Of a stretch of DNA of 64,000 bases, positions 1 to 59,388 are shown one piece after another. The position numbers and the translations under genes are program-made. Below the pieces are notes generated by a model that made no database searches, was not told the DNA's origin, and was given only the letters and a program-made list of their open reading frames with translations. How positions within the stretch are numbered: position 1 is the stretch's first letter; each line of letters begins with the position of its first letter. The DNA is from Girardia tigrina (lineage: Eukaryota). The stretch is taken from positions 1-64,000 of the forward strand of contig MQRK01213447.1 in assembly GCA_001938485.1 (NCBI GenBank), written 5' to 3'.

Positions 1-98
1 AATGGACTTTATTTCGAATCATAATCTTTATTGTGCGTTGTTTTATGAACATTTTAATTTTTAATAAAAAGTGCCCCACAACTTATGACTCACCCTAA
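1..98 (+). mobile_element. 3' end of a mariner element (transposase C-terminus plus right TIR), cut by the window edge
   Basis: Window opens with NGLYFES*, a typical mariner C-terminus. It ends in ...acttatgactcaccctaa followed by TA, the same terminus as the right TIR of the mariner at 19321-20468. Confidence 0.75.
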
Positions 99-471
99 TA
101 TATATATATATATATATATGAAACAAAAGTGGAAATATAAGCCGAAAAATACAAAGAAGAGTTCCAGAGCTGACTTCAGTTTCCCTTGGGTCGTATCCAT
201 TAGAAATTGCGACAGAGAAACTAAGCTGAAAGATTTAGGTATGGAGTGCCGGTTTATTTGGCTGCGGTCGAGGTGTTGCAGTTTACGAGCAATGCCGCAA
301 GACGAGAACGTAAAACGCCCCTTATTAGGGTCATAAATTATGATTTGTGGTGGTCGTTCCACAATGTCGGAGAACGAGAGATGACCGTCGATATCCACGG
401 AAATTGTTTTTAATTTTAATTTTTTAATTTAATTTAAAAAAGATTTAAAAAGATTTAATTTAAAGATTTGA

Positions 472-473
<2 letters not shown>

Positions 474-520
<47 letters not shown>
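474..520. repeat. (TA)n microsatellite at the 3' end of the PLE
   Basis: TA dinucleotide run read directly from the sequence. Confidence 0.95.
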
Positions 521-523
<3 letters not shown>

Positions 524-594
524 CAAAAAATTAAAAAAAAATAATGGTAAATTATGTTTAAAAACAAAAACACGCCATTTGTTAAATTTATTTT

Positions 595-641
595 TTACGA
601 CAGTTAATTTCGACGGTATAACCGTCATCGTCAGGTCTCAA
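595..641 (-). ncRNA. Minimal type I hammerhead ribozyme motif in the PLE 3' UTR (U16.1 mutated to C)
   Basis: Minus strand reads TTGAGAC-CTGACGA-T-GACGG-TTATA-CCGTC-GAAA-TTAAC-T-GTCGTAA: CUGANGA and GAAA core boxes, 5-bp stem II, short stem I. Confidence 0.8.
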
Positions 642-708
642 GAAAGAAATGAATTTTAAATCTGCTTATATAGGCAAGCCGTGATTATGTCATCAATGGA
701 TTATTATA

Positions 709-3077
709 TCATCTAAACACGCTTAATAGGGTGTTCGAGAGACCCGTTTGCACATTAATCTTAGGAACTAAAGATCTGATATAAAGTGCTTCACTGGCCA
801 CCCTCTCCCAATAGTTTTTAAAACGAGAACACAGAATTTTAAAATCATTTATGTTTATGTTTTCATTCAACTTACAACCCTTTCTGTGTTCTGCAATATT
901 ACTCCCACCTACATTCCGACCATATTCTTGGATTCTCCTACAAAGATGACGGGACATCTCTCCAATGTATATGGAATTACACCCATTACATGTAAATTGA
1001 TATACGAGATCCGAACATAATCCAAATGGGGTTGGAGATTTATTACAAAACACATTTTGGATTTTATATGTTTGTGATATTATTTTTAAATTAAAGGCAT
1101 TATTTACGCATTTTAAAATTGAACGTTTAAATTGACCAAATCCCTCTGAATATGGAATGCTTTAAACATATTTTAAAGTTGTTGAGTCTTCTTTATCATT
1201 TATAATCGGTTTATCAATTAATATATCAATTGTTTCTTTGGTCAATTTCTCAACAATTGATTTTGAATAACCATTTTTATTCAATAATTTTGTTAATTGA
1301 TTAATGCTATCACAACTTTTTGTATAAGTTGATGATAATGACCAAGATCGAAAAATTAGTACTCTAATCATATTATATTTGTAACAAGATTCACAAAAAC
1401 TGTTTGGCGTTGTATATAACCCAGTATCAGTTTTCTTTCTGTGAATCTCAGTCTCATAAACATCTCTTTTCCTTTCAATCAGTAAATCTAGGAAAGATAA
1501 TTTACCATTATTCTCTGTTTCTGTTGTAAACTTAATATTTGGATGCAAAGAATTTAAGTATCCTAAATATGGATCTATGTCAGTTTGATTATCGAAAATA
1601 AGAAAAACGTCATCAACATAGCGTTTATACGCTAGAGGTTTTTGACCCGGAAAAAAATCGATCTTATCTTCAATACTTGACAAAAATATTGAAGCGAGTG
1701 TTGGAGCTAAAGGAGAACCCATTGCTACACCATCAACCTGTTTATTCCACTCATTATTAAAAAGAAAATGAATATTAGAAGTGGCAAAACATAACAATTC
1801 ACGAAATGCAACTTCGTCGATAAGATGGTGTTCACCAACATTATCTTTCCAAAGATTGCAACATAAATCAATCGTTTCCCTCAGAGNNNNNNNNNNNNNN
1901 NNNNNNNNNNNNNCAAAAGAAACCATAATTTCATTTTTGTTACTAATCTTATAATTTGAAATAAAGTCAACAAATTCAAAACTGTCTAAACAATTAAAAC
2001 CCTTTTTCAGAAGTGGCTTTAATTTACCATCAAGATATTTCGCTACTTCATATTGAGATGTATTAACCATAGATAATACGGGACGCAAAGGAATGCCATC
2101 TTTGTGAACTTTTGGAAGTCCATAAAGTTTAGCTGGTTGAGAACCAACTGCTTTTAAACTATTACCTAAATTTTTATTAATATTTTTATTTTCAATTAAA
2201 TTTGATAATAACGACGACAAATATTCATCACCTTTTAAAGTGGGCAATTTTCCATTTTTCCTAAATTTACTAACTTTATTAAATTGCGGACAATTTAAAA
2301 CTTTTTCCATTTTATCAAAATAATCACAATTATTCATTACAACAAGTCCATTCCCTTTATCAAATTTACATATCTTTACATTCTTTTTTGATAATTTTTT
2401 TAAAATTAAAAAATCTTTATTACATTGTTCTTTATTTTTTTCCAAATATACATTCGTACTATTATTTAAAACGTGTTTTCAAATATCAAAATCCACGCTT
2501 TTAAATAATTTAGCATGATTTAATGTCAAAAATTGGAACATTGATTCAATTTTAGATTGAATTTTAAATTTATTTAACCTAGTTCTAATTCCATGTTTAG
2601 GACCAAATTTCAATAAATTAATCTCTTCGTCTGATAATTCTACATTACTTAAATTTAAGACTGTATCTTTAACATTAAATTCAAAAACACCAAATAATTT
2701 TCTTAAAGTTTTCAGTTTTTTGATCTGTGTCTCAATTTTGTTACGAGAGATTTTATTAGCATGATAATCAAAGAAAATATTACACCAATGAAAACACAAA
2801 TCACTACTTACATTATACAATGCAGATCTAACAATAGTAAGTCGTTTCACAATTTCTATTCTTCGTTTCTTCTCTGTCTCCAGCATTCTCCTTAGGATCT
2901 TCCGATGAATTTTGCGAATATCTTCTTTCTGTAAGCATTCATGCAATTTTCTTTTAAGATAAATGAGGGGATAATATTCTCGGCAACACAGGAAGCCAAA
3001 AAATATATATCCAATTCCTTTCTTCGTAACGAACAAACTAATTTCAGATATTTCTTGAATGTAACCAGCGCATCATA
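709..3077 (-). pseudogene. PLE RT / GIY-YIG polyprotein, disrupted
   Basis: ORFs 2479-3036, 1162-2445 and 709-1053 share one frame and are separated only by single stops (TGA at 2479-2481, TAA at 1162-1164). One frameshift near 2960 links to the upstream frame. Confidence 0.9.
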
Positions 3078-3340
3078 TATATATANNNNNNNNNNNNNNN
3101 NNNNNNNNNNNNNNNNNNNNNNNNNNNNNNNNNNNTATAAGCCATATTTAGTAATAAACATCCAAATGTTAAATTCGCTATCGAAATCTGAAATTTCACT
3201 CTTAATTGAAAGCGACTGTATGTAATTTACAATCAAGTTCCCAAAATTTTATATTAACTGGAAGCGACAGTAGTTTATCATCCTCCACCTTCCTACATTT
3301 TTGTGAAAAGAAGAAACTGTAATGCATTGTCTATCCTCAC

Positions 3341-3916
3341 GTCCTTAGTTACCGTGGTTACCATGACAACGGTCGCGATCACCTTATCAACGCTTCTGAT
3401 TGGTTCCTTAGCCTATGCAGCAACGGTTCCGGTTCACTTAGCTTAGGTAGAAACGCTTCTGATTGGTTCCCGCTTCCTTAACAACGGTTCCGGTTACCTT
3501 ATCAACGCTTCTGATTGGTTCCTTGGTTCCCTAGCCATAGGCAGCAACGGTCACGATACCCTATCAACGCTTCTGATTGGTTCTTGGTTCCCTAGCCATA
3601 GGCAGCAACGGTCACGGCTACGATAGCCTAGGCAGCAATGGTTCCAGTTCACTTGTGGTCGATCGCCCCCACAATGGTTCACTTGGAAACGCCCCCGCAA
3701 TGGTGGGGCCGAACATACAGCAACAGTGGGGGCGAACGCCCTTAAAATGGTGGGGCCGAACGCCACCGCATGGTGATGGTAACCAAGGTCATGGTTACCA
3801 TAGTAACGGTAACCAAGGGACTTTTTTCATTAGCAACAGATACAGTGATCCAAGGTGGTTGTAACCATGGTTACGGTTCCCGTATCCATAACAACCGTCA
3901 CCCTGTAACTAAGGAC
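3341..3916. promoter_or_regulatory. GC-rich cassette with RFX X-box-like, CTGATTGG (Y-box) and GC-box repeats, bounded by 12-bp inverted repeats
   Basis: GTCCTTAGTTAC at 3341 and GTAACTAAGGAC at 3905-3916. X-box matches GTTACCATGACAAC (3357), GTTACCATAGTAAC (3794), GTATCCATAACAAC (3882), plus palindrome GTAACCATGGTTAC (3861). Four copies of AACGCTTCTGATTGGTTC (CTGATTGG at 3396, 3459, 3511, 3573). Regulatory function is inferred. Confidence 0.5.
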
Positions 3917-4209
3917 CGTAGAAAAAAGTGCTAATCGATCACTGCCCAGTGCTCAGAGGTGCTAGGGAATATTTTGAAAGTTCTAATCGATAGTGCACAT
4001 TTTGCCACACATTTCTAATGTGCTAGCACAGTACTTTTTCAGTTGCACATGAGCAAAAGTGTAAAAATCAATACATAAAATTTTTAAAAGTACCAATTTC
4101 AAAAATCTGTATCATGTATTTAATGCACATTTTGATTCTCTATTTGAATGTGCAAATCAAATTTTCATATATTGATTACTTTTCTCTATAATAAGCATAA
4201 TGTGTAAAT

Positions 4210-4518
4210 TTACACAAATTGCACATTGATTTTAAAGGTACAAGGAAGTAGAATATCAAAAAAGTGATCATGCATTTGAATAGTAACCCACATACGTACA
4301 TTCAGATTCAACATCAACAATTTCAAAAAAGTGCTGATAAATCGATTTTTTCGAACATTTTTGAAATTCTCGAAAAAGTGCTCAAAATCCATATTTTCGT
4401 ATATATCTGAAACCTCAATGATATATGTATGTTGTTTACCATCAAACAATACCTCATGAATCTCGTAATGTACACAAGTATAATCACAAGTACCATGGTT
4501 ACCGTAACCAAGATACAT
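4210..4518 (-). pseudogene. Orphan intronless ORF fragment, possibly Polinton or virus derived
   Basis: 102-aa ORF (YEIHEVLFDGKQHTYIIEVSDIYENMDFEHFFENFKN...) with GGTTACGGTAACC motifs at and upstream of its 5' end. Only a loose resemblance to Polinton polymerase N-termini. Confidence 0.25.
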
Positions 4519-4663
4519 AACATTTTATTTTATATGTAAAATCTACATGTAAAAACTTCTGTTATCCTTCAGACATGTATCAACACTATACAAAACATCT
4601 ACATTACCTTAGTCATTAACCACCAAAAGTACCTAGGTTACCGTAACCATTATACATAACATT

Positions 4664-4719
<56 letters not shown>

Positions 4720-6100
4720 TAACTATTGTTATCTTCAATCAGACCCAATTTCTGTTCAGTGTGATCTTACATTCAATTTCGTTTTTTTCCTTCTGTTATA
4801 GTTACAAATAAAGTTTTCGTTATGAAAAAACTTGGTTTTTTTGTTTTAGTATTGGTTACAAAACAAGTTCATTGAACATTCCAAGTTCAGTTAGCTCGTT
4901 TTGTTTTTAATTAATAATTTTTTTAGCGGGAATATCGTAGAATTAATTGAAAAGGGGATATATATGAATAAAAGTGAGAAACATTTAAAAATGTTTGCCG
5001 TCCTTTGAGAAAAATTGCAAAAAAAATTGCCGCCCTTAAAGGGTTAATAAAAAGTATCTATTTATATAAATAAAATTAAAATCACCTATTCTATTAACTT
5101 AAATAAAAAAAATTTTGAATTCATTATTTTTTGTTTTAATTCTGTTTCCTTCAATTTTTTCACGTGAAAGTGAAAATCAAAGAATAATTCCTGATTTATG
5201 AGTGAACCGACTTATATTTCTGAAATATGGAGTATTTTGTATTTAACGTTAAAAAAGATTTTTTCAATTATTTTACTGATAAGTTATTTACAATTAATAA
5301 ATATGTAAAGAATAATAAATATTTAAATATTTTAGTAATTTTAAAATAATAATAATATTAATAAAAAAATATTTGTTTCTGACCATATAAAAATAATTTT
5401 TATTTATTTTAGTATATTTTTTCTAATAATATTATTAGTATTATTATTTTTAATGTACGTTTGCATTCTTTTTTGAACATATTGCAAAATATAGTAAAGG
5501 ATTACGCTGCACGAGAGCATTTAATTAATGTATTTTATTATTCTAGTACAAAGACTTAAAATAAAGTAAATAAAAGGTTAACCTAAATTTACAATATTTT
5601 AAAATATGCTGAGTTTATTTAGATAAAAGAAATTAAAATGCATTCAGTTTAAGTTTATTACTAATTGAAGAAATTTTAAAAATTTTTTTCATAATTTAAT
5701 TTCATAATTATTATATAAATTCAATGTTTAAGTTGCTGAAGAATTTTTTTGTAATTTGACACTGACATACATTCTGACCTTCTACATTAAAGTTATCAAG
5801 ACTCGCTGGTGCCACTGTAAGACCTTTCTTCCAGTTGTCGAGTAAAAGGATACTGTTAATCGTCTTTTGTCCTCATAAAATATAACTCAGTATATCTATA
5901 AAAAATAATTTTAATACAAAAATAAATTCACTTATGGAAAATGATGCTAAATTTGGGGACAGAAAGTTCATGTATTATAGAAATAGTAAACAAATGTTAT
6001 GGAATATTAAAACATAACCTAAAAAAATATTCCCTTAAAATAAATTATTTATACAACTAACACTAAAACTTACAAATATTAAATGTTAATTAAGACCCAG

Positions 6101-6516
6101 ACTTTTCTGTGGCGACAAAAATAAAATTCTGCGACCCTGTTGTAAATATTCCGCGATTTTTCCGCGATTTCTTCAAAAAACTCAGTAAAAAAGTTTTGAT
6201 GTGAAGTATGAATCTATCTCTATTTACAGATTTTTAAACATCACTGAAGCTAATGCAATACCGTTTACAAGAGTTGTTATGTAAAAAAGTCAATAATTCC
6301 AAAGGCAAAACTGTTATTTTCATGAATCTAGTCTTTCGACTCTTTGCTGATTCAGCACTGCAGAGTTATTAATAATAACGTATTATGTATTTTTCTCTGA
6401 GATTTTGTGCATTATTTGTTTTTCCGCGAATGTATTTAAATCTGCGATTTTTCCTCGATTTCGCGGAATATTTACAACAGGGTCGCGGAATATCATTTTT
6501 ATCGCCACAGAAAAGT
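6101..6516. mobile_element. MITE with roughly 55-bp terminal inverted repeats
   Basis: ACTTTTCTGTGGCGACAAAAATAAAATTCTGCGACCCTGTTGTAAATATTCCGCGA at 6101 is mirrored by TCGCGGAATATTTACAACAGGGTCGCGGAATATCATTTTTATCGCCACAGAAAAGT ending at 6516. No ORF inside. Confidence 0.8.
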
Positions 6517-9500
6517 TAATGATAATTGATGAAGATGGAATACGAAATTGAAAACATATTCAATTATCAATTTCTTAGAAAAGCTTTAACAAAATTTTTT
6601 TTCAAATGTATCAAACAGTATCACACAAGACTCTTTATATATATATATACATAAAATTATTTTTTTTCACTTTTAATAATCTTCATATAATTATTAATTT
6701 ATCATAAATTAATGAATTTTGATTAGATTTCCAAATCCTGCTCTTTTTTGTCATCTTTGTAATAAAGAAGATTAAGACAATAATTCCTGAACACTCCATG
6801 TGACTAGACAGTGTCTAATTAAATGATTTTGACGCAAAATGATACTTAATCATTGTAGCAATTCACGCAATATAATTCTCATTGAATCCCCCAGACATAC
6901 TTCGTTAAGAATATTTTAATATTATATTCGTGTAGTTCCAACTTTCTCTTTTAATCTTATTTTAAATAATAAAACTATTCCTTTTCTGATATGGTATTAT
7001 TATTAATATTGTTGTTAGTAATAATTTAAATATTTCATTTTTTATTTTTATTAGTTATAAAAATTTCTGTTTAGAAATGTCAATGTAATGGTCGGATTTA
7101 TTAGATTTCTTCTATTGTTTTTGGATTATAGCGACATCAATCACTACGTGGTTTTTCTACACATGTTTTAGATATTTAACTATTTAAAGTTTCAATTTAA
7201 AATTTAATACCCTTTGTGATACCTTTTCATTGTAAACGGATTGTGTTTGAGGTAATAATTTAAAGAGATTTATTTTATTTGCGTATGTAATTTTTATTTT
7301 TTTGACAACCCGTGGGTGCGGGGGTTTGTTTTTTTTGTTATTATGTGATTTGTGGTTTTGTCTGTATTATTATTTTTTATTACCAGTGCCGTATTATTAT
7401 TTTTTATCATTTTTTTATTCATGTTTTTTTTCGCCAAATTTTCGCCAGTTTTCTTTAATAATACATTGGCATTTTTATTTAATAATACAATTCAAATTTC
7501 AATTTGCCATAGCGAATTGAAATTTGAATTGTAATCGATTGAAAATTATCATTAATATAATTATTTTGTCAAAGGATTGGGGTTTTTTATGATTTTTATT
7601 TTGACGATGTTATTGACAAAGAAATATATTTAATCCACCGTTTTGGCGAAACATTATAACTCGACAAGGTCCAATACAATTGTTATCATTGAGAAGAAAA
7701 GAAAATAAAGACAATAATTACTTTTTGGAAGCTCAGTGATTGCTGTCATTTATTTCAAAGTATCTATTTGTAATTTGTTTTTTTTGAACGTTGTGAATCC
7801 GTCAGTTGTCGTTAATCAATAATAATTAATCAATACTTTAAAAAAACATTCTTTAATTCAATCATTTTTTTCGTAGGACTGTGAAGTTCATTTAACGCGA
7901 TAATTAAGTTAGCTTCACAATTCATATAATATAAAGAATAATTCATTTGTCCTCAAGGTGGACTAAATAAGTGAATTATTATTATTGATTTAGTAGAGAT
8001 AGTGAATTCTTTACTTCATAGGATTCATTATCTTTACACCATTTATACATTATTGTAGTAGGTCCTCTTCAAACAAGATTTTTGTTTTAACAGGTCAACA
8101 GTACAAATCCTGTTGCATCAGTATTATTATTGAACAAGTACCGGGTGTTGTGAAAGTCTTGTCAATGCAATTTGACACTAGATTTAATGAACTTAAACTG
8201 ATATGTAGCAATTTATTTATATTTGGTTTATAGATTATAAGTATTGACATTCTTTTTAAATCAATCTTTGGAATTTAGAAATCTGTATGTGAACGCATGG
8301 CAGTAAGAGTATTGTGATGATTGAGAGAACTTTGATAACCAATGCGATGAAGCGCAATCACTTTGAACAGTGTCAGGTCTTTTGAAGGACATCTTGTTTA
8401 CAAAGACGAACAAACTTTCACAGTGAATTCATCATTGAACCGTCGCAATAACTGTGTCATTAGCTTAGGGATTATTTGACATCATTGACATATGAACAAA
8501 TCATCCCTCTAGCATAATGCTACTGAGTGTGGTGGCAGCAAATGAAAAAGTCAGTCCCCAGTGTCCTTCCCTTCTGATTACAGACTGAATGGCACAGATT
8601 ACCAACAAGCTCCGAGCCAAACTGTAAAATACACATAAAATTAGATAAAATGATATAATTTTAATTATACTTTCCTCAGTAACTTTTTGTACAACGTTGA
8701 TATCTATTGCCCTTCTGTACTTTTGATGTCATATTTACGATGCCTTCTCTTAATAAAATCATTCAGGAATGGAAGAAGAATTGTGAAGTTAATATTATTA
8801 TGAAATGGTTTCATAAAATTAAAAATCGGTTCTATGTGAACTTTGTCTTTGAAAAAGAAAAAATGGGAAAATGGAATGGAAATGTTATTACTCCATGTAG
8901 AGAAGATGACATTTGATTTTTATTTGATTCAATATTTTTGTAAATTTATATCACTCAAATTATACAAATTGTTGACAGCAATCATTGAATATTTAATTCT
9001 TAAGGTTACTTTATCATATTTTGGGAATAATATTTTTTCAATTTTTATATAACCTTCTATTCGACATGTTTTTTGAAATAAAACTGATTTCCAAATCGGT
9101 TAGAGATTCCAGTGATTTCTAATTTCTAATAATTTTTAATTTGATAAAAAAATCTTAGTTTTAAGTATTTGAAAATTCGTGTAACAAGTTCTCTGTCAAA
9201 TTAATAAACAATATCTTATGAAACTGTTAACTTATAAACAAATGTCTTAAAAATAAACGTCTTAATGATGAATCCAGACATCCGTATTGCAAATGTTCTA
9301 ACATCCTGCCCTAGCACGCGTCTCTTGGTCGCGTCTCTTTCTAGACTAATGTAGCGTAAGCGCAAAAATTAGTTTGTAAAGCAGGACAACAAGTCTAACA
9401 TTTAATAATATAAAATCTAAAGTTTTATCGAATCTCCATAAAAACCCTTGATAACGGATTCTTCAAATTTAAAAATATATCAAATTGAAAATATTATTTT

Positions 9501-10823: not shown

Positions 10824-11120
10824 GAAAACATGTTTCGCCACTTTTGTGGCATCTTCAGTTCTGTATTTAATTAGAAAGTTATTGTTTATATAGAAAGATG
10901 ATCATTACGTCACAGTGTGTTACGTCAAAATACTCTAATATGATTGGTCGAATCACTTTGCACATTTAAACTAGGTTTACAAAATTTTATTAAGAGTGCT
11001 TCAGTAATTGCCTTTCATAATTTGCAAAGTGATTCGTCCAATCATAGTAGAGTATTTTGACGAAACACACTGTGAAGTAATGGTCATCTTTCTATATAAA
11101 CAATAACTTTCAAAGTAAAT
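10821..11120 (-). mobile_element. Severely 5'-truncated PLE (GIY-YIG tail, promoter and hammerhead) with an inverted 5' duplicate, between TA repeats
   Basis: Minus strand near 10955-11015 encodes AITEALLIKFCKPSLNVQ (GIY-YIG C-terminus). About 100-bp inverted arms lie at 10871-10965 and 11020-11113. Confidence 0.8.
10822..10863 (-). ncRNA. Minimal hammerhead ribozyme, intact core
   Basis: Minus strand reads CAGAA-CTGAAGA-T-GCCAC-AAAA-GTGGC-GAAA-CATG-TT-TTCG. Stem III region is palindromic (AACATGTT) and the cleavage triplet is GUU. Confidence 0.85.
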
Positions 11121-11919
11121 AAATATATATATATGTGCGTGTGTAAATGTATATAAAAATTATTAAGGATATAATTCTATTTTCAGAACTTTAATAATAA
11201 GTTAAACAATAACTTAATTTTAATAATAATTTTGAACAAAAATTAATAAATCAAACGTAGATTATTTTTAATTAAATTGTCTCAACTAAATTCTTTTATT
11301 AAAAATTTGCACCCAGAAAAAATATTTTGTCGATATATTAATTTAAAAAAACGAATTAAAACTTAATTAGACAATTTAATTTTGTTAAAGTTAATAAAAT
11401 GTAATTAAAAAGTTAATATCAATATTTTCATTATATCATATGGAATTAAATATAAATTTATTCAACTCAGTATGGAAAATTAATTGAAATATCTTTTCAA
11501 AATATTCAATTTTATAATTTGATTTAAGAATGAATATTTATTTTTTTTGATTTTTGTTGATAATTAAGAAGAATTTTTTTTAATTAGAAAATTTGGATTT
11601 TCAAAGTAGGAATAAAAGTTTATTGTTTTCGGTACCGAAAAAGACTTGTTTCAGTGAAGTTATATAGATATACCAAAAGTAGATATAAGAGTCGATTCTA
11701 ATCTCGACTCAGTACAAAAATTATTATAATGTGTAAAACAGTATTTAAAAAAATAAAATAAAATAAAAAAAAACAGTACTTAAATACTTAAAAAACATTA
11801 CTTTTATCAGCGGTCGATTATGGAAAGCTTTTTCAAAGAAATTTATTGAAAAATTCACGAAAATTTTTGATCAAATTGTCTCTGTTGTCAACCTTAATGT
11901 TATGTAAAGGCTTCTTAAG

Positions 11920-13718: not shown

Positions 13719-16700
13719 GTGTAAAATGATGTACTGAAAGAATTTTTTAAAAAAGCTGTGTCTAAATGAAAAACGCAAACTGCATTTTTAACCGGGTCGG
13801 ATTACCAGGAGTCGGAAATATAAGACGGAAATATTTTTTTATAAATATAAAATCATTTTTGTAGTACAAAAATTTCAGAAGTCTTGTTAAGATAATAATT
13901 TGTATAAATATAGTATAAAAGGAAATTCACATTTGTTAAACATGTTACTGTAAAATACTAAACATAAGCGTACAATATTTTCAGATAAATAAAAATAAAA
14001 GTATTTTATGTTACATTTGTTTATAAAAAATTATTTATAAATAATTCATAAAAACTATATACATATTATATTGGAAGTATTTTGATATAATTTGAAATGA
14101 TTAATAAAAATAAATAAAAATAATATATACATCGTTTAACTATTTATATAAAAAAATCTTACCTAAATATCTTTGGTAAAATATGGTTGATTAAAAAAGA
14201 CGATATTTTTATATTCAAGCAAAATTACTCAGAAACTTCTTAGTACAAAATACATATAAAAAGATTAAATGAATTCAAACGATTTTTAAATAAAATAAAC
14301 AATGTTAGCTTCACATATAAATTAATATTTATTACTGTACTTAATATTTATTAATATTTATTTATTATGTTTGTGAGGAATATTTTAAATTGTTCGAATG
14401 TGTAAATGTATGGATGCTGTATGTTGATTTCAGTATGCTGAACATAGAATGGTGATTCTCTCACCCAGATGGAAATTGGTATTTTTTTATATTTAAAGTG
14501 ATTAACTATTCAAACATAATTAAAATAAAAATTTGATAAGTTTATATTTTTTAAATTAACAATTAAAATTAAGTTTAATATTTTTTTAGAAAAGAAAAGC
14601 ATTTAAGTAGATATAAATAAAATTTAAATTAAATTAATTTTTTAACAATTTGTTAACATTTTTATTATTTTGGGTTTTTATTAAGAAACGGTTTAAATTT
14701 TTATTTTTAATTAAAATTTTTAAAAATTAAATATTTTAAAAAGATTGTTTGAATAATCATGATTAAAAACAGAAATAAGAAAACCAATAAGAACGATGCC
14801 AAATGATGAAAAGACCTTCTGAGAGTTGTAATGACTGTAATTGTGATAGTAATAAAATGCTAATGAAAATTGTCTCAATTTCATAACAATGTAAACAAAA
14901 AATATTATTGTTAAGAAAGCGTATTAAAATTAAATAAATTTCTTTAGTTATAAAAAACGGGAAAAAACAGAAAAAAATGTATTAACTAATAATAAAAGAT
15001 TATAATAAACGATTTCATAAAAAGAAAACAAGTGGATGTTTCTATCACAAATGTTGGTAAAGTAAAAAATGTTGAAATCCAAAAATAATAATCGACCAAG
15101 AAATGGAATGATTGGAAGAAATAATTTTTGTTGTAGTGAATAAATAAGGAAATATGATTTTTTCGGGGAAATAACATTTGAACAACGAATTAGTCAGATT
15201 TAAATGAAAGATAATTGAATTCAGAAATATGGTTTTCTATAACGAAAGAATTATAAAAGTTCGGCCGATTTCTAGGGTTTTACATTTCTAGAAGATGTCT
15301 TTGTAAATAAAAATTCCAAATATCGAAGGTATGTCTTTAACGAAAGAAATTGGAAACTCAAATTTTGAAATAACTGTGAATTAATGAATTTTCTAAGAGT
15401 CCACAAAGAAGAAACGCGCATTCACCACGTAGACGAGCAAAAGGAATAATTAAATTAATATTTTATTTTAATTTATGCTGGCTTTTGTAGAATCCATTGA
15501 TGTCTTTGGATTAGCTTTGATTGATCGATTAAGTGAGGGCAAACAAAAGCTCTTGTCACTGACGAATAGATTGTATGGCAGATTTGTGACGAGCTCCTGG
15601 TAAAGATTGTTTTGCCTCCATTGAAGAAGAGTCACATGGCCCGCCGTCTGTTTCACTTTGTGCTGCTTTTCAAAACATATAAGTTTTATTAACTTTCTTC
15701 GTGGAAAATGGACTGCATAGAAATATGAATTCGCAATAACTAAAACATTTCAAAAATGTTTTTTCTATTAAAATAAAAAATATATATATATAATTAGATA
15801 TAGGAAAGTTATCTTAAATAACTTTGGCGAGGTGAGTAATCCAATTTCAACTTTATTTTATCATTCTGAAGATGATTTTATGTTGTAAGGGGGTTATATT
15901 TAAATAAGTATAATACAAAATGGTTTATCTTTTAATTATATATTATGAAAAAAATAAATAAAAAGAACATTAGAGGGAGAGATTAATCTCAATTAATGAA
16001 CATTCCTAAAACTGTTGTTGGAATGAGAATACTAAACAATGACATCAAGACAATATAATCCAATTTGACCTATAACTGGATAATCGCATAACAAAACTGA
16101 TAAACAGTGCAACCTTTCCCCATTAGTCATCGAAAAATGAGTCACGAAATAAATAAAAAAAATTATTTATTCTTTTAACGAAATCATAAATGAAAACAGA
16201 TTAATTTACAATAAATATTTTTGGTTATTTTTGATATTTATAAAATTTGGAAGCCGAAAGTTAACGAATTGTCAAAAATATAACAACCTTGACTGAAATA
16301 TAAGATAGAATATTGTTACTAGAATATGATCAAACACTAGGTTAAAAAATAAATATAAAATAAAATAAAATAATAATAATTTAGATATACCTTCTTTTAA
16401 TAATTTACTTAATGAATCAGTTAATAATACAACAAGATTATAACTAATATAAAATAAATTAACATTAACAAAATATAAAAAATTGAAGATGTTTTGGAAA
16501 TCGGCAATTGATAGTATAAATGCAAATATAAAATATGTCAAAAATGTATTTTGGGTTTTGATTCTTAGTGTTGTTTTACCTCTCTGAAAATACCGAATTT
16601 TATTCCTACAAATAATAATAAATGTTTTTCTTACAAAAGGTTTTGCAAAAACTTAAAGAGCAGTGAAACGTTTTGGAAACTTAGAAGACAAGGAAAAGAA

Positions 16701-20468: not shown

Positions 20469-21292
20469 TAATTAAAACGTGGTAAAAACTAGGGTTAGTT
20501 TTAATGCTTATATGTTTTTGGCTAGAATTTTAGAATTGTTTTCTTTTTAAAATGTAAATTATGTTTACCAAGTCTCTCCCAAGTTTGTGGTGTTACATTC
20601 ATTACATTTATAAACTTATTCGAGCACAAATTGGTGAATGGGAGACATTTATTATTAAAGATATATTGTTTGTTTATAAAATTTTTAAAAAAAATTGTAA
20701 GTTGATAGTTTTTCAAAAATAAATAACAGAACGTTTATTTTTTAGTGATGGATAATAAGAAAAAAGATCGATAGTATGTGGCATCCTATTTAAGTATATC
20801 ATATTCTTCATCAATATTTGAAATTTATGGAAATCCTTTTCCTGTTGATCTAAGAAATAAGAAAAAGTCTATTTAGCTCACTTCCATTTGTATAACGTAT
20901 TAAAAGTCGGAAAGGCGACTCAATAGATGCATCAAAATAAAAAGCTATGTTTGGTGTAGTTTCCAAGTTGCCCTAGAGACTGACCACTTACAGCAGATAT
21001 TTATGCAGTTCATGTGGTGCCTATTTTTGAGATTTCGTTTTTAAAATTCATATTGTACATTAAACAAAAATTTCAGATTTAAAAAGTAAAATAATTCGTT
21101 TTTAAAAATTTATTTTAACAACGTCAATCAAACTTCGTGTTCGAATTGGACTTCAAAATATTCAAAATTGTGACAAAATGCGAATTTCGTTTCGTTCAAA
21201 ATTTTATTACAACTACAAAAAATCAAAAAAAAATAAGGAAATAGAAGTCAGATGCCGTAAAAAGCAGTTGATGAAAGAGTATCGTCCGCGAT

Positions 21293-21965
21293 ATGCTCTG
21301 GTTATTTGGTGGCCAAGAAGATCTGGTCGAATACCAGGAATGCTTGAATGAGAGAGGAATTCTCGACACTGACGAGAAATTCAAACACCTAATTAAAGAA
21401 ACTGTGTCTGAAAAACTGATAGCAGTGATTGAACAAAGAAAGGAGTACCCAAAAATGCCAAAACCGCGTATCAAAAGAGTGCAGTGCACATATCCTCCTT
21501 ATTTCAAAGCTTTTGCGGAACAGAAGGAAGTAAGAAGACACATCAAAAACGTGCATACGGTCAAGACGCCGCAGCGTCAGTTTGGTGAAAAACCTTTCCG
21601 ATGTCCAATGGAAAATTGTCACAATACATATAAAACGGATAGATGGTTAATGAGACATTTATTGATCGATCACCGAACCCAAGGCAGTACCAGTGTACTA
21701 GTGTTTCACAAAATAAAGCAGATTTAGGATGCACAAAATCTTCGGACGCGACCGCGATGCATGATGTGTCAGTGCCCCTCGACGATACCGCGGAGACGGA
21801 CCCAATAGTGATTCCAAGGGTGGTTCTCGACTTACGGTTAAGTAATACAAATGATGTGGGGATATTTTGGTGTCCCTTTACTCATTGAACACAACATGTT
21901 TACACAGCCAAAGCTCTACAGAATCACTATACGAGGGATCATGACTGGTCCTTTCTGATTGGGTA
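21293..21965 (+). pseudogene. Intronless C2H2 zinc-finger pseudogene (three fingers)
   Basis: VQCTYPPYFKAF..VRRHIKNVH; KPFRCPMENCHNTY..LMRHLLIDH; after a frameshift FWCPFTH*TQHV..LQNHYTRDH. GC content is above the flanks. Confidence 0.7.
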
Positions 21966-22840: not shown

Positions 22841-23308
22841 TACTGTCGCTGACATTTAAGAATATCAATGTAGACAGTTAATAATAATTCTATAATCTAA
22901 AATACAAAGAATTAATCAATTATCCAATGAAAAACAAGACACACTTACCAAATTAGACAATTAAGAATATCATAGACACTTAACAATATCAAATAATATA
23001 GAAAAATAAAGTCTACCCCCAAACATACATAACTTACACTCAAATACATACATACACGTACAACAAACACACATAATTTTACAGACATTTAACAATAATG
23101 TGGACATTTCAGAATATCAAAAATGATATACCATCTCGTGGAAATTTCGTATATGTGTGTATGCATGTGTGTGAGGACTGCATATCATATGTCTAATTTG
23201 GTAAGTGTGTCTTGTTTTTCATTGGATAATTGATTAATTCTTTGTATTTTAGATTATAGAATTATTATTAACTGTCTACATTGATATTCTTAAATATCAG
23301 CGACAGTA
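22841..23308. mobile_element. Foldback MITE with 119-bp near-perfect inverted arms
   Basis: 22841-22959 is the reverse complement of 23190-23308 with one mismatch seen. Both arms end in TA, a possible TA TSD. Confidence 0.9.
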
Positions 23309-34882: not shown

Positions 34883-35835
34883 TATCTACATTGTTGCCAC
34901 ATGTGTGAAACATTCAAAATCAAGTAAATGTCATTATATTTCAAATAAAACATATTTAAAGTAACATAAGTAAGAAAACTAATAAGTGCAAAAGAATATA
35001 TATGCAATATCTTCAAAACAAAAACCAAGTCAACTTTTTCATGAACATATTTGAATTTAGAGCAGTTGAATTATCTATAAGAAGTTGATGTACTTAAAGA
35101 AGCAATTTTTTGTTGTACTATGTTATTTTATGTATATTAACAATTCATATAATGCCTATAAACTTAAAATTGACTTAAAACTTAAAAAAGACTATAAACA
35201 TTTTAGTTAAAAAATAAACTAATTATTCATAATAGATCTTTTAATTTTTAAAACATCCAAAAACAACTCTTGACACTTTACATATATTGAAATATATATT
35301 GAAATATTTAAAATAAATTTTTTTAATTATTATTTATTATCCGTTTTTATCTTCAAGATTATACTAGATCCAGTCATAAATTGTCATTTTCCTAATTATT
35401 AATCATTATTTACTTTCCGAAAAATATATTAAAAATCATTTTTTAATTTCTTGTTACAATGTACAAATATTTGTCTCCTTTTTTTGCTTAACACTCATTT
35501 AAGAACAAAAAAAGAATTTACTCGACGTTGAAGTACTAGAAATATTTTCAATCATATTACTTACCTATTGTTATAATTAAAAAATAAAATGATTAAAAAT
35601 GACTTTTTAATCAAAAAATATGTTTTTTATTTAATTTGAATATAACGAAAATTATTATCTCGCGAAAATGAGTAATAAGGAAATGATATAAATGATTATT
35701 ATAAATAAGATATAAGATATAAGATATAATAAATCTGTTTAATTGAGTTGAGAGAGCTCGTAAAAGAGTTGGAATTGTAGAACGATATACAAAATTTGAA
35801 AACAAAACAAAAAAATAGCTAGCAACTCGGATCAC

Positions 35836-37572
35836 TTGATTGGGAGACTAAAGCCGGAAAAATATCAGAGACAGGACAATGTCGAAACATTTATATCGGC
35901 TTGTGCTCGATATTGCAAAGTGGCAAAGGTCCAGGAAAATATTCAGGAAATATTGGTGATAGGGTTATTGTCCCACGAGTTAATACCAATATATGAAAGT
36001 GTTCCTGCGGATATAAAAGGATATGAAGCCCGACTTCGTGAAGCTTTCCTTAAGAAAAGCACATTGACTTAGAAGAGGCTGTACATTTCGAGAGGTCCGG
36101 TGAATCGATCGAGGAGTACTTTGCTAAAGTAAATAAATTAGCAGAGAAATTAGTAAAACACCAATGGACAAAAGAGGAAATAGAAAGATGTCTTCTAATT
36201 CACGGATCAAAGGACAGTGATGTGAAAAAGGAGATTAAACTCAGAAACATAAAGGAGATACCGGAAATATAGAACGTGATGAGGAAAGTAGATGAAATCC
36301 GGAGATCTGAAAAACCGGTTCATGCGGTAAGACCAACGTATAGAGAAGCGATAAAAAGAGGAAAAACAGCCGGGAACTCGGTGAGGAAAACGGAAACATC
36401 GGAGAGACGACCTCCTTTGCGTAACAACAATACATGCTGGAACTGCAAAGAAATAGGCCATAGAAGCATTGAATGTAAGCGAGAAAAGAGGATCACGTGC
36501 TACGCATGTGGAGAAACGGACCATGTGCGCCGAGAATGTAAGACGATAATATGTAACAGGTGTAACGATCCAGGACATAAGGCGGATGTGTGTTACACGA
36601 ATCTGAACCGACGTCATCACAGAAGGAACGAGTATCAAGAGAGAAAAGAATATCATGGGAGAACACAGAGGGACAATTGACAGCCACCACAGAGTCAGGA
36701 AAGAGACGGGAGAAACTGGAAGTCGGAGGAATACCTGAGAGGTTTTCAAAGAGGACGACAGATAGCAATGATGAAAGAAGAAGAGTGCAGAGAATCTGAA
36801 AAAAACGAGCAATGCCAAGACGACGAGGAACCGATGTTGGCACTACAGTAAGTCTTTCATTACACAAACCAAACCATATAAATTATATATATAATAGTAA
36901 TAATATCAGTAATATAAATAATATTAGTAGTAAATTAAATAATAGTAGTCGTTTTAATAAAAGTGATAAAAATAAGTCACAAAGTATGAACGACCAGGAA
37001 CCAGAAATAGATCATAAAGTGATTAAGTTTATTAAAAAGATATCGGATAAATCGGGAGAACTCTTAATAATTAATAATGAGGAAAATGTACCGATTATGT
37101 ATAACAAACTACAGGGACGGCCAAGCATAAATGTTACGATTGAGAACATCGAGATTGAATGCTTATTAGATACGGGAGCTGCATTAAACGTGATAAACGA
37201 AGAACTGGTTAAGAAAATAAATAACATAAAAGTGGAACGAACAAATCAAAAATTGACGGCAGCAAATGGGTTACAAATGGATGTTAGAGGAGAAATGGAG
37301 ACGGTAGTGAAAATTGGAAAAAAAAGTGGAGAAAACAAGATTTGTAATAGTGAAAAGTTTAAAACCAGACATAATAGGAGGCATACCATTGATGGAATAG
37401 TTCCGGATAGAACTACAATGGAAAGAACAAAATCAAGAAAATAGTAAAACCAATATATGTGAAATCGAGGCGAAATTTGGAGAAAAGATTACGGATGAAG
37501 ATCGAGGTAAAGAGGCACTAAAAATGATAGAAACACAGAACGATAAATCAATAGAGAAATTAATTGAATATT
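35836..37572 (+). mobile_element. Gypsy LTR retrotransposon fragment: gag (3 CCHC knuckles) and aspartic protease, truncated before RT
   Basis: CWNCKEIGHRSIEC, CYACGETDHVRREC, CNRCNDPGHKADVC; protease LLDTGA and LTAANG. Stops and frameshifts present. Ends shortly before a TA repeat. Confidence 0.9.
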
Positions 37573-40575: not shown

Positions 40576-43204
40576 AGCACGAGCCTAAAGTAGTACTCGA
40601 TGTTGATATGATCGACTGTATGAGCAAAGTCAAAGAGGATTAGGTCTTTTAAATACCAAAACGTGGTGAGTATAACAGCTTTATGAGAAATGTTGACGAC
40701 TGCATCTTCATGTTATTAGTTGTTCGTTTTGATAATCATATTGACAATAAAATATTCCCGATATTTGTCATTATTGTGGTAAATTTTGTCCTAACTCGTT
40801 ATATACGTGTGACTCGTTATAATCTATTCAAAAAGTAAAACATTCTTTAAACATCAGGTTTTCATTTGTTAGAACTTTGTATACCCGCTATTTACATTGT
40901 CATAAAACTATCTAATACGTCAAATGTACTTTACTTCAATTCTACTTTACGCCAGTAAGCATTTTATACTCTTGAAAAGATACATTGTCTTTAGGAAAAG
41001 TAAATTAATTTCTGGAACCAAAAAGAGCTTTTGTTGAATGCAGCATGTCAATTACTTACTTTACGCGTTTTCACAATCTCGCTCAGAGTAGCAAGCCTTT
41101 TATTGAGGTGGATTACAGGTCCTGGCCCTCCATCCGATGTTGGTCAGCACCTCAACAAGACAAGCTTCAGACACTATAGCCTAGAGAAGAGAGCTATAGT
41201 TTCCCACGGACACCACGTGGAGGTTTTTCCGACTGGCTTAACACAGGTTACCAAGTAACAGGTCCCCGTTGTACATGTACCTGTTTTACACCACAATATA
41301 GTTCGAAAGAACTTTCACCACTTGCACAGTTCAGTCTTTATGCGTACATGCAAGGATCTATTTTTTGACGGCATTAACATAAATTACAAATTATTACATA
41401 TAGGGTACAAAATACCATCATCACACACACATAAAGACTCAAAGCAACATACAAAGTTTAAGTAAAATTCAGATTAAAACTTTATTTATGAGTATACGTA
41501 ACCTTACTGTTTGCATTTGTTAAGAACATTGAGACAATCTTCATTTGAATTTGTATTATTATCACATTTAGAGTCATTACAACTCTCAGAAAGTCTTTCA
41601 CTGTTTGACATCGTCCTAATTGGTTTTGTTATTTATATTTTTAATCATGATTATTCGAACAATTTTTCTAAATTCTTTTAAAATATTTAATTTCTAAAAA
41701 TATTCATTAAATTAATAATTTTAATCATTTCTTAATAAAAACACAAAATAATAAAAATTTTATCAAAATATTAAAAATGAATTTAATTTAAATTTTATTA
41801 ATTTCATTTATATCTACTTAAATGCTTTTCTTTTCTTAAAAAAATATTAAACTTAATATTAATTGTTAATTTTAAAAAATATGAACTTATCAAATGATTA
41901 TTTTAATTATGTTAGAATAGAAAATCACTTTAAATAGAAAAAATACCAACTTCCATCTGGGTTCATGTATTAATATTTTCAAATTAAATTTTTTTCTTTT
42001 AATTTCTGTTTATTTATTAATATTATTATCAACTACGTGTTGATAATAACTATCGCTTAGTGTTCAATTTAAATAATATTTTATTGTTTTAAGTATTACT
42101 TAATTTTCCATGATTTAAAAGTATATATAATATTGAAAATAATAAATAAATAAATATTAGAAATATAAATATAACAGACAGTGTTTTATATTTCTTTCAT
42201 TTTATAAAGCAATGGTAATGGGATTATTTAGTGATTGTCTTTTGTGTAAATAGTGATGTGATTTATATCCATTTCTATGATAATGTCTGCCACTGTTTCA
42301 TCATCGAACAACTCACAGGCAAATATTCATTTGTTGAAAATAAAAAATAAATTATTTTTATTTATTTATTTATTTTCAGAATAAATATTGTTTCGTTCTC
42401 GATATGGCTTACACTCTTAGTAGGTTTCCATGATGAGATTTATCGATATTGGCAAAAGAAAAATACAAATTAACCCTCATATTTTAAAAAAAAATTAATA
42501 AAGAAAAATGAGTTTATTTAAAAATGCTCTCTTTTAATTAGTTAAGGGTTTTATTTTTTCAATAAATGCATTTTTAAGTAACTTCTTTCTTGTCAATTAC
42601 TGCAGATGCCAGTCAAACTTAAAACTAATTCACTTATTTCAACACTTTATGTACTACAACTTTATGTCGAGCGTAGATAGCTGACACGGATGATAGGGCG
42701 GCTTACTCATTTTGTAATGATTCAGAATATTATATTTCTAATGTCTTGTGGTTATCTATTGATAATTTTTTTTCAATAACTCATCTCTTTTGTCTTATAA
42801 AATGATTATCAATGTATCTAGTTAACACGGAATAAATTTATCTTATCTGCCCATACCGAACCCGAAAGATCAAATTAAAACCGGCCCCCTTCGTCTTCTC
42901 AACGACCAATGATCCCTTATCATCTGCAAATAATTTAGATGAACATCTGTGGAAATTTCCTTCCATTCATGTGATAATTTCTTTTTCTGTCTTATGGGAT
43001 TAATATTTTTTTAATAATACTCGTAAATAAATTGGTGTCTAACTGATATAATATAAAATCAATATTAAAATCTAGTTTAATTATTTTTAATGAAAGTTAA
43101 TTATAGATTCCTTTAATTAATGACGTTTTGTTTGAGTGTGGAAGAAATTAAATGAGTAGAAAAGAATATGAAGATTAAAAAAATAAGTTTTTGTATATAT
43201 ATAT

Positions 43205-43503
43205 ATTTAAAAAATGGCAACTTATGTTTAAAAACAAAAAAACACGCCATTTGTTCAATAAACTTTCAGTTTTTATGACAATTAATTTCGACGGTATAAC
43301 CGTCATCGTCAGGTCTCAAGAAGAAAATGAGTTTTAAATCTGCTTATATAGACAAGCATGGATTATGTCATCAATTGATTATTATGTCATTTAAACAAGC
43401 TAAATATGGTCTTCGAGAGACCCATTTGCACATTAATCTTAAGATCTAAAGATCTGATGTATTGTGCTTCACAGGCCACCCTCTCCCAATAGTTTTTAAA
43501 ACA
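43205..43503 (-). mobile_element. Solo 3' fragment (pLTR) of the same PLE family as 521-3077
   Basis: Closely matches about 535-822 (GIY-YIG tail, TATA, hammerhead) and has (TA)n on both sides. Confidence 0.92.
43273..43319 (-). ncRNA. Minimal hammerhead ribozyme, intact core
   Basis: Minus strand reads TTGAGAC-CTGACGA-T-GACGG-TTATA-CCGTC-GAAA-TTAA-TT-GTCATAA. Palindromic AATTAATT stem III region, AUU triplet. Confidence 0.85.
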
Positions 43504-59203: not shown

Positions 59204-59388
59204 AAACCAAACCTTAACCCTAACCCTTACCCATAACTCTAACACTAAACCAAGGATAAAGCCTAACGCTACCCCTAAATTTAACCCTAACCTGCACATC
59301 TCACCCTAAGCATAATCCTAAGCTCTAACCCAAACCACGAAATCTAACCCTAACTCATTACACTAACCCTCACATCTCACCTTAATCT
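59204..59388 (+). repeat. Degenerate (CCCTAA)n telomere-like array
   Basis: Many CCCTAA, CCTAAC, CTCTAA and CCTTAA hexamer variants over about 185 bp. Confidence 0.75.

Follow-up and report, generated by a model that had tools for sequence, protein, structure and literature searches.

A GC-rich island with X-box-like and CCAAT words forms one end of a highly abundant non-coding repeat

The 64-kb stretch analyzed here (hereafter the window) is AT-rich animal DNA (27.6% GC) that consists mostly of transposon remnants, including Penelope-like, mariner, gypsy and other elements, and its CpG content is not depleted (observed/expected, 1.08). Between two inverted copies of a 12-bp word, a 576-bp island at 3341 to 3916 carries words resembling RFX and NF-Y binding sites, which raises the question of whether this island is a self-contained regulatory cassette or part of something larger. 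The original prediction favored a cassette rich in GC and CpG, delimited by the inverted repeat and used as an enhancer or origin by a mobile or viral element. We found that the island is GC rich (51%), whereas its CpG observed/expected ratio of 0.86 lies below that of the window. The inverted repeat is perfect (3341 to 3352, forward strand; 3905 to 3916, reverse strand), a 12-bp inverted repeat was reached in 4 of 1,000 mononucleotide shuffles, and the single strand of the island is able to pair its own ends (z -2.37).

Extent, layout and abundance of the repeat

Public contigs of runs X1 and X2 (organism A, one study) and X4 (organism B) were placed on 3136 to 4665 at 80% likeness, with 4 of the 24 listed runs used; X1 may come from the source sample itself, and the fourth run, X21 (organism G), contributed 0 reads and carries no weight. 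The matching contigs numbered 172,013 for X1, 135,818 for X2 and 5,280 for X4. At 3340, the summed depth rose 32,000-, 10,800- and 7,400-fold between the flanking bins of the three runs; in X1, for example, it was 1,204 at 3289 to 3339 vs 38.8 million at 3340 to 3390, although this first high bin may owe part of its depth to a repeated unit and the exact terminal base is located indirectly. Since contigs of Penelope-family paralogues match the left flank up to 3337 and 3339 and then diverge into other letters, the repeat starts at 3340 or 3341, and the 12-bp word at 3341 to 3352 is likely its true left end. A start at 3338, where the flank reads CAC as at the ends of CACTA and Transib-type elements, was rejected, since 61,419 is the upper limit of depth for any base in 3289 to 3339 in X1.

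On the right side of the island, no such step was seen. Summed depth in X1 was 20.8, 18.6 and 17.6 million in the three bins around 3916, and at least seven contigs span this position. Since depth is unbroken across 3916, the right copy of the 12-bp repeat is internal to the family and is not its boundary. Joints from 3467 to 3922 (depth 5,000 in X1 and 7,021 in X2) and from 3884 to 3919 (16,992, in X2 only) skip this inner copy, which is therefore dispensable in at least two amplified subfamilies; for comparison, flank contigs have a depth of 20 to 36. A self-bounded 576-bp MITE or cassette was rejected on these grounds. The motifs of the island are real, but the 576-bp cassette is not a unit.

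Depth in X1 averaged 16.6 million over 3952 to 4563 and then fell to 0.7 to 1.3 million at 4564 to 4665, which is still far above the flank. The highest-depth part thus covers 3341 to 4563 on the forward strand, and the right end of the repeat lies past 4563, probably at about 4770. We rejected a target duplication of TATCCT (3332 and 4563), since the only left-flank 6-mer to recur does so at 4563, inside family sequence that runs on past this point. Foldback-type elements are flanked by target duplications of 8 to 10 bp; no duplication of at least 7 bp was found in the window, with the right end of the repeat lying at or beyond the edge of 3136 to 4665.

From left to right, the terminal word is followed by tandem units pairing an X-box-like and a Y-box word (3353 to 3650), a GC-box tandem block (3651 to 3770, forward strand) with a period of about 23 to 26 bp, a cluster of X-box-like words and GGTNACC palindromes (3771 to 3904, forward strand; family depth about 20 million) and the inner 12-bp copy. 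Beyond it lie an AT-rich domain with repeated AAAAGTGCT-type words (3917 to 4465, forward strand) and two units of about 135 to 140 bp (4466 to 4770, forward strand, the end being approximate), each with a GGTTAC-C-GTAACC palindrome and then a T-run, the second with a (TA)n expansion. Palindromes at 3940 to 3951, 4496 to 4510 and 4636 to 4648 are each followed by a T-run (at 3972 to 3975 for the first). Joints at 4599 and 4604 lead back to 4466 to 4468, in the zone of the 135- to 140-bp units.

Subfamilies differ in the middle of the island. Joints from 3438 to 3440 into 3771 to 3822 remove 332 to 382 bp, and a joint at 3534 leads back to 3367, as expected of a repeated unit. The GC-box block is rare: depth at 3697 to 3747 was 2,255 in X1, 715 in X2 and 0 in X4, or about one ten-thousandth of the family, and one X2 contig (depth 406) is identical to the window over 3624 to 3800. 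These findings suggest that the block is nearly private to a small young subfamily.

Summed depth is not a copy number, and some joints went uncounted, but a rough floor of 1.5 to 2.7 x 10^4 copies follows if single-copy depth is 20 to 36 and at most 31 unitigs cover each base. The window holds one copy of the repeat, in line with some 10^4 copies dispersed over a large genome. None of seven frames of 59 to 104 amino acids across 3258 to 4529 matched Pfam, and searches of 1 to 8000 with Rfam and ARAGORN for a known RNA family or a tRNA-derived SINE gave no matches. The island is thus the left, GC-rich end of a non-coding repeat that is at least 1.2 kb long and very abundant. This family ranks among the most numerous repeats of the genome; it has to be masked correctly and would skew any genome-wide count of RFX or NF-Y motifs. 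The depth profile of X4, presumed to be an RNA run, follows the DNA runs (log-depth correlation, 0.92) and gives no transcription signal; in organism A, three presumed RNA runs contained none of the words of the repeat, although this does not prove that they are absent.

X-box and CCAAT words and their pairing

X-boxes were scored with the pattern GTNRCC-N0-3-RGYAAC against 500 dinucleotide shuffles and against 719 permuted decoy patterns run on the real sequence. There are two exact sites (3348 and 3794), six with up to one mismatch (adding 3357, 3493, 3861 and 3897) and 17 with up to two, 3882 among them. None of the 500 shuffles matched these counts at any mismatch level, and the decoys reached them in 1, 0 and 3 of 719 cases at zero, one and two mismatches, respectively. 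The enrichment over shuffled controls that had been set as a check is thus present for X-box-like words, while plain CCAAT is not clearly enriched (at least four in 30 of 500 shuffles). The GC boxes described in the center were confirmed as three EGR-type words at 3664, 3690 and 3726 (0 of 500 shuffles), and of the two X-boxes named in the right part, 3794 is exact but 3882 qualifies within two mismatches only.

The X-Y units (four and a partial fifth, forward strand) each consist of an RFX-type right half-site, a spacer and CTGATTGG, and their number varies within the family. In the window, CTGATTGG stands at 3396, 3459, 3511 and 3573, giving unit spacings of 63, 52 and 62 bp. The X-Y spacers of units 1 to 4 are 25, 34, 25 and 24 nt, unit 2 carrying a 9-nt insertion, and the invariant parts are CAACGGT and AACGCTTCTGATTGGTT, with a variable left half-site. 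The claim that four units pair an X-box with a Y-box holds for the Y-box, which is found in all four, while unit 2 has half an X-site only. Since the four units are, by alignment, tandem repeats of a single unit, their pairing has to be counted as one independent event. A single shuffled unit contained an X-box with up to one mismatch together with CCAATSR in 19 of 40,000 trials, about 5 in 10,000, and an X-box together with plain CCAAT in 65 of 40,000; given the hundreds of possible factor pairs, the former odds are only moderate.

In the family majority unit, the sequence after the Y-box includes the half-site CCTAGCAAC and passes into the following unit, whose CTGATTGG comes 25 nt later, whereas the window copy is degenerate and lacks an exact CCTAGCAAC. 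This half-site was read in the predominant loose end behind 3404 (agreement of 0.97 over 758 contigs in X1 and 0.84 over 553 in X2), and ATTGG is kept in a divergent variant (the loose end behind 3488 in X2) and before three different 3' continuations. RFX1 to RFX3 bind a palindrome of two half-sites, while the site of RFX5 and RFX7 is CCTAGCAACA, which frequently lies close to a CCAAT box (PMC11344851, PMC8287911), and CCTAGCAAC agrees with CCTAGCAACA in 9 of 10 letters. Since the conserved part is one half-site of the RFX5/RFX7 type with a CCAAT box, and not the palindromic site of RFX1 to RFX3, the predicted role in ciliated or spermatogenic cells is less favored than one of the ubiquitous RFX5/RFX7-NF-Y type.

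As in the S-X-Y modules of MHC class I and II genes and other RFX5/RFX7-NF-Y promoters, a single RFX half-site stands upstream of a Y-box in ATTGG orientation, at what may be a fixed distance. Order and spacing are fixed in MHC modules (PMC2278383), with X-Y distances given as 20 to 22 bp (PMC4374748) or as 17 to 18 bp to ATTGG (PMC7753138), depending on where the box edges are drawn. With an X box of 14 nt and a Y box counted from CTG, the distance in the repeat comes to 20 nt, so that the unit spacing appears compatible with the MHC arrangement but does not prove it. Unlike an MHC module, the unit has no evident S or X2 box, is tandemly repeated and lies within a repeat of an invertebrate-type genome; no X2/CRE word is visible in the unit spacer. 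By its letters, the majority unit seems closer to the MHC X-Y pair than to the ciliary palindromic X-box.

Our favored hypothesis is that the repeat is the arm of a non-autonomous DNA transposon whose X-Y units are a predicted host RFX/NF-Y promoter, inherited from a coding parent; we hold this reading to be plausible, though short of probable. A partner transposase, supplied in trans, would move the element by its ends, and slippage or unequal exchange would alter the number of units. Each unit would be bound at fixed spacing by an RFX5/RFX7-type complex and NF-Y, the MHC-like orientation would point transcription into the element, toward the transposase gene of the parent, and with each further insertion more such modules would be spread across the genome.

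The main rival to the promoter reading is that the X-box-like words serve as repeated binding sites for a transposase or Rep protein belonging to the element itself, or arose neutrally by slippage, with the CCAAT box being incidental. We consider this possible but doubtful. Besides the units, X-like words are found at the terminus, in the right cluster and, in the form GGTTAC-C-GTAACC, at 4496 and 4636, and they share a GGTNACC/CAACGG vocabulary that could mark transposase sites, as in Galileo, whose arms carry repeated sites for a THAP domain (PMC3688188). The variability of the left half-site between units and the weak enrichment of CCAAT point the same way. On the other hand, the exact order of the X-box outdid the 719 decoys, and the majority unit combines its close match to the RFX5/RFX7 site with a full Y-box in MHC orientation (PMC11344851, PMC7753138).

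Returning to the promoter reading, its most far-reaching form seems unlikely, namely that tandem modules of an RFX half-site and NF-Y box, spaced like the X-Y enhancer of vertebrate MHC genes, were dispersed in their tens of thousands by an invertebrate DNA transposon. If true, the X-Y grammar would be an old animal promoter code, used by transposons for their expression and seeded across genomes. If the sites are bound, the family would amount to a large store of RFX/NF-Y promoters ready for use, much like the heat-shock arrays of Caenorhabditis Helitrons, and its thousands of natural unit variants would make the X-Y spacing rule testable outside vertebrate immunity genes.

Class of the element

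Judging from its layout, the repeat is probably a single modular arm belonging to a non-autonomous DNA transposon. Like the foldback element Tetris, it has a long, internally repetitive arm of several domains, here three over about 1.4 kb (PMC4079207), and its repeat-rich outer domain, AT-rich domain and 135- to 140-bp tandem units would together work like a foldback arm. Unlike foldbacks (Tetris, Galileo and Mutator-derived elements), it presents one arm only, this arm contains a further copy of its terminus in inverted orientation, and its copy number is far above the 610 TIR-220 repeats reported for Tetris (PMC4079207). Neither a mirror-image second arm nor a right terminal repeat was found in the 64-kb window, whose copy may be truncated, and no autonomous partner turned up in the material analyzed. 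We thus describe the repeat as what would work like the modular arm of a DNA transposon and assign it to no superfamily.

Helentrons offer a second point of comparison. DINE-1, HINE-Mo and Cg_HINE have an inverted pair of 11 to 15 bp around tandem repeats, a palindrome after the second copy and a high copy number (PMC4067079, PMC7492417). The repeat could accordingly be a Helentron-type rolling-circle element (HINE) with 12-bp subterminal repeats around central tandems, to which read-through added more sequence downstream and extra 3' hairpins, a tentative alternative that we likewise doubt. Its perfect 12-bp pair encloses tandem arrays of variable number, its copy number is very high, the palindrome 23 nt and the T-run 56 nt after the inner repeat lie within HINE ranges (PMC4067079), and palindrome and T-run are repeated at 4496 and 4636. 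However, HINEs have the 3' repeat 38 to 60 bp and a 3' palindrome 8 to 35 bp from the end, and in this family depth continues for at least 650 bp past 3916. Moreover, some subfamilies lack the inner repeat. HINEs insert into T-rich sequence and have T's at both ends, while the left flank of the one copy seen here reads CAC instead of a T-run. The 5' end has no nearby short inverted repeat or microsatellite, and short hairpins are common in this stretch at about one per 150 nt. Canonical Helitrons begin with TC after a host A and end with CTRR before a host T. No such end is present at 3341.

A solo terminal repeat of a retroelement (LTR or tyrosine-recombinase), in which a U3-like part would hold enhancer repeats, is a quite improbable reading. 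The length of 1.2 to 1.4 kb, sharp end, even depth and tandem promoter-like units would suit a solo LTR, and the inner inverted copy resembles an internal complementary region. LTRs begin with TG, but this left end does not, no gag or pol abuts it, and the window holds no inverted partner for what follows the inner repeat; a circle junction of the DIRS type was rejected on the same ground for 3917 to 3936.

It is more improbable still that the repeat is a lone monomer from a long, complex satellite array, in spite of its extreme summed depth, its internal tandem units and the uncounted joints. No strong junction back into 3341 was found among the 15 of 439 joints listed, and the 18 loose ends listed out of 2,088 include no conserved one ahead of this position; varied flanks are therefore favored, within the joints and loose ends listed.

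The least probable reading of all is that of a self-contained 576-bp module, bounded by its inverted repeat, that serves a Polinton or virus as enhancer or origin: the perfect 12-bp pair, the pairing of single-strand ends and the motif enrichment would suit it, but depth and contigs continue past 3916, some subfamilies lack the inner repeat, the frames tested contain no viral gene and the collection scans gave matches at chance level. These scans found 1, 2, 2, 0 and 0 loci in five viral contig collections, 0 and 11 in two metagenome collections and 0 and 0 in two prokaryote genome collections. As copies, the 16 loci were rejected and put down to chance: 15 match the repeat over 17 to 26 nt only, the sixteenth gave no alignment at E below 1, and all have 42 to 67% GC. 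The proposed link to a mobile or viral element thus survives as a mobile multi-copy element, but not as a link to Polintons or viruses. What adjoins the copy at this locus is a Penelope-like reverse transcriptase and GIY-YIG domain, and not pPolB, integrase or capsid genes.

As a transposon arm with factor-site words, the repeat would resemble the Helitron-borne heat-shock elements and the CERP2 and CELE2 germline promoters of Caenorhabditis, where abundant non-coding transposons spread transcription-factor motifs in arrays or pairs (PMC6927752, PMC9757741). The Caenorhabditis cases involve other factors and have support from ChIP, ATAC and expression data. The repeat would thus join the transposons that carry factor-site arrays, with the X-Y spacing parallel as the interesting but unproven part. 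As far as titles and the openings of abstracts show, papers on RFX and transposons, planarian repeats, modular elements, foldbacks and factor-site arrays describe neither this family nor an invertebrate transposon carrying RFX/NF-Y sites. None of six sequence words of the repeat was found within a described repeat in the papers searched, where at least eight papers match the 12-bp word alone and, by their titles, deal with other subjects; a Repbase or Dfam name is possible.

The Penelope-like flank and other elements of the window

The left flank of the repeat is a broken Penelope-like retroelement (539 to 3339, reverse strand) with reverse transcriptase and GIY-YIG domains, a frameshift near 2960 to 2985, internal stops and assembly gaps. 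It is 61% identical to an 841-amino-acid relative over 712 to 2985, and the left end of the repeat lies about 80 to 90 bp upstream of its inferred start codon. We ruled out a Penelope pseudo-LTR, for which a 3'-end repeat and a hammerhead would be expected, since the repeat has no similarity to 521 to 900. Within the 64-kb window, the repeat does not resume beyond the other side of this retroelement. The first CCAAT box of the repeat lies about 60 bp from the 5' sequence of the retroelement, in its sense orientation (3162 to 3403); since this retroelement copy is broken, an effect of the box on it is doubtful here.

A minimal hammerhead-like core (CTGACGA, a 6-bp stem and GAAA) is present on the reverse strand at 608 to 634 and at about 43286 to 43312, at the 3' end of Penelope-like copies. 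The core is identical in the two copies, which are 87% alike overall, and was not detected by Rfam; the motif is known for this class of elements (PMC7761336).

Other remnants are spread over the window. At 5027 to 5047, AAGGG is followed by TTAA, which we take to be the pattern of a piggyBac-type end, and this end has no partner in the window at up to five mismatches. A C2H2 zinc-finger frame at 21275 to 21727, 90% identical to a 524-amino-acid protein with a reverse transcriptase and then C2H2 fingers, is a non-LTR fragment. Gypsy-like gag (with a zinc knuckle) and protease fragments occupy 35800 to 37444, the gag part being 93% identical to one protein, and a degenerate AACCCT array at 59210 to 59370 (26 copies, 59% matches) lies beside a transposase-like fragment. 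Two MITE-like inverted repeats, at 22841 to 23308 and 10864 to 11121, have arms of 119 nt (99%) and 103 nt (92%), respectively. Finally, a dispersed AT-rich repeat occurs in inverted orientation at 14483 to 14811 and 41596 to 41943, with the two copies 72 to 83% alike.
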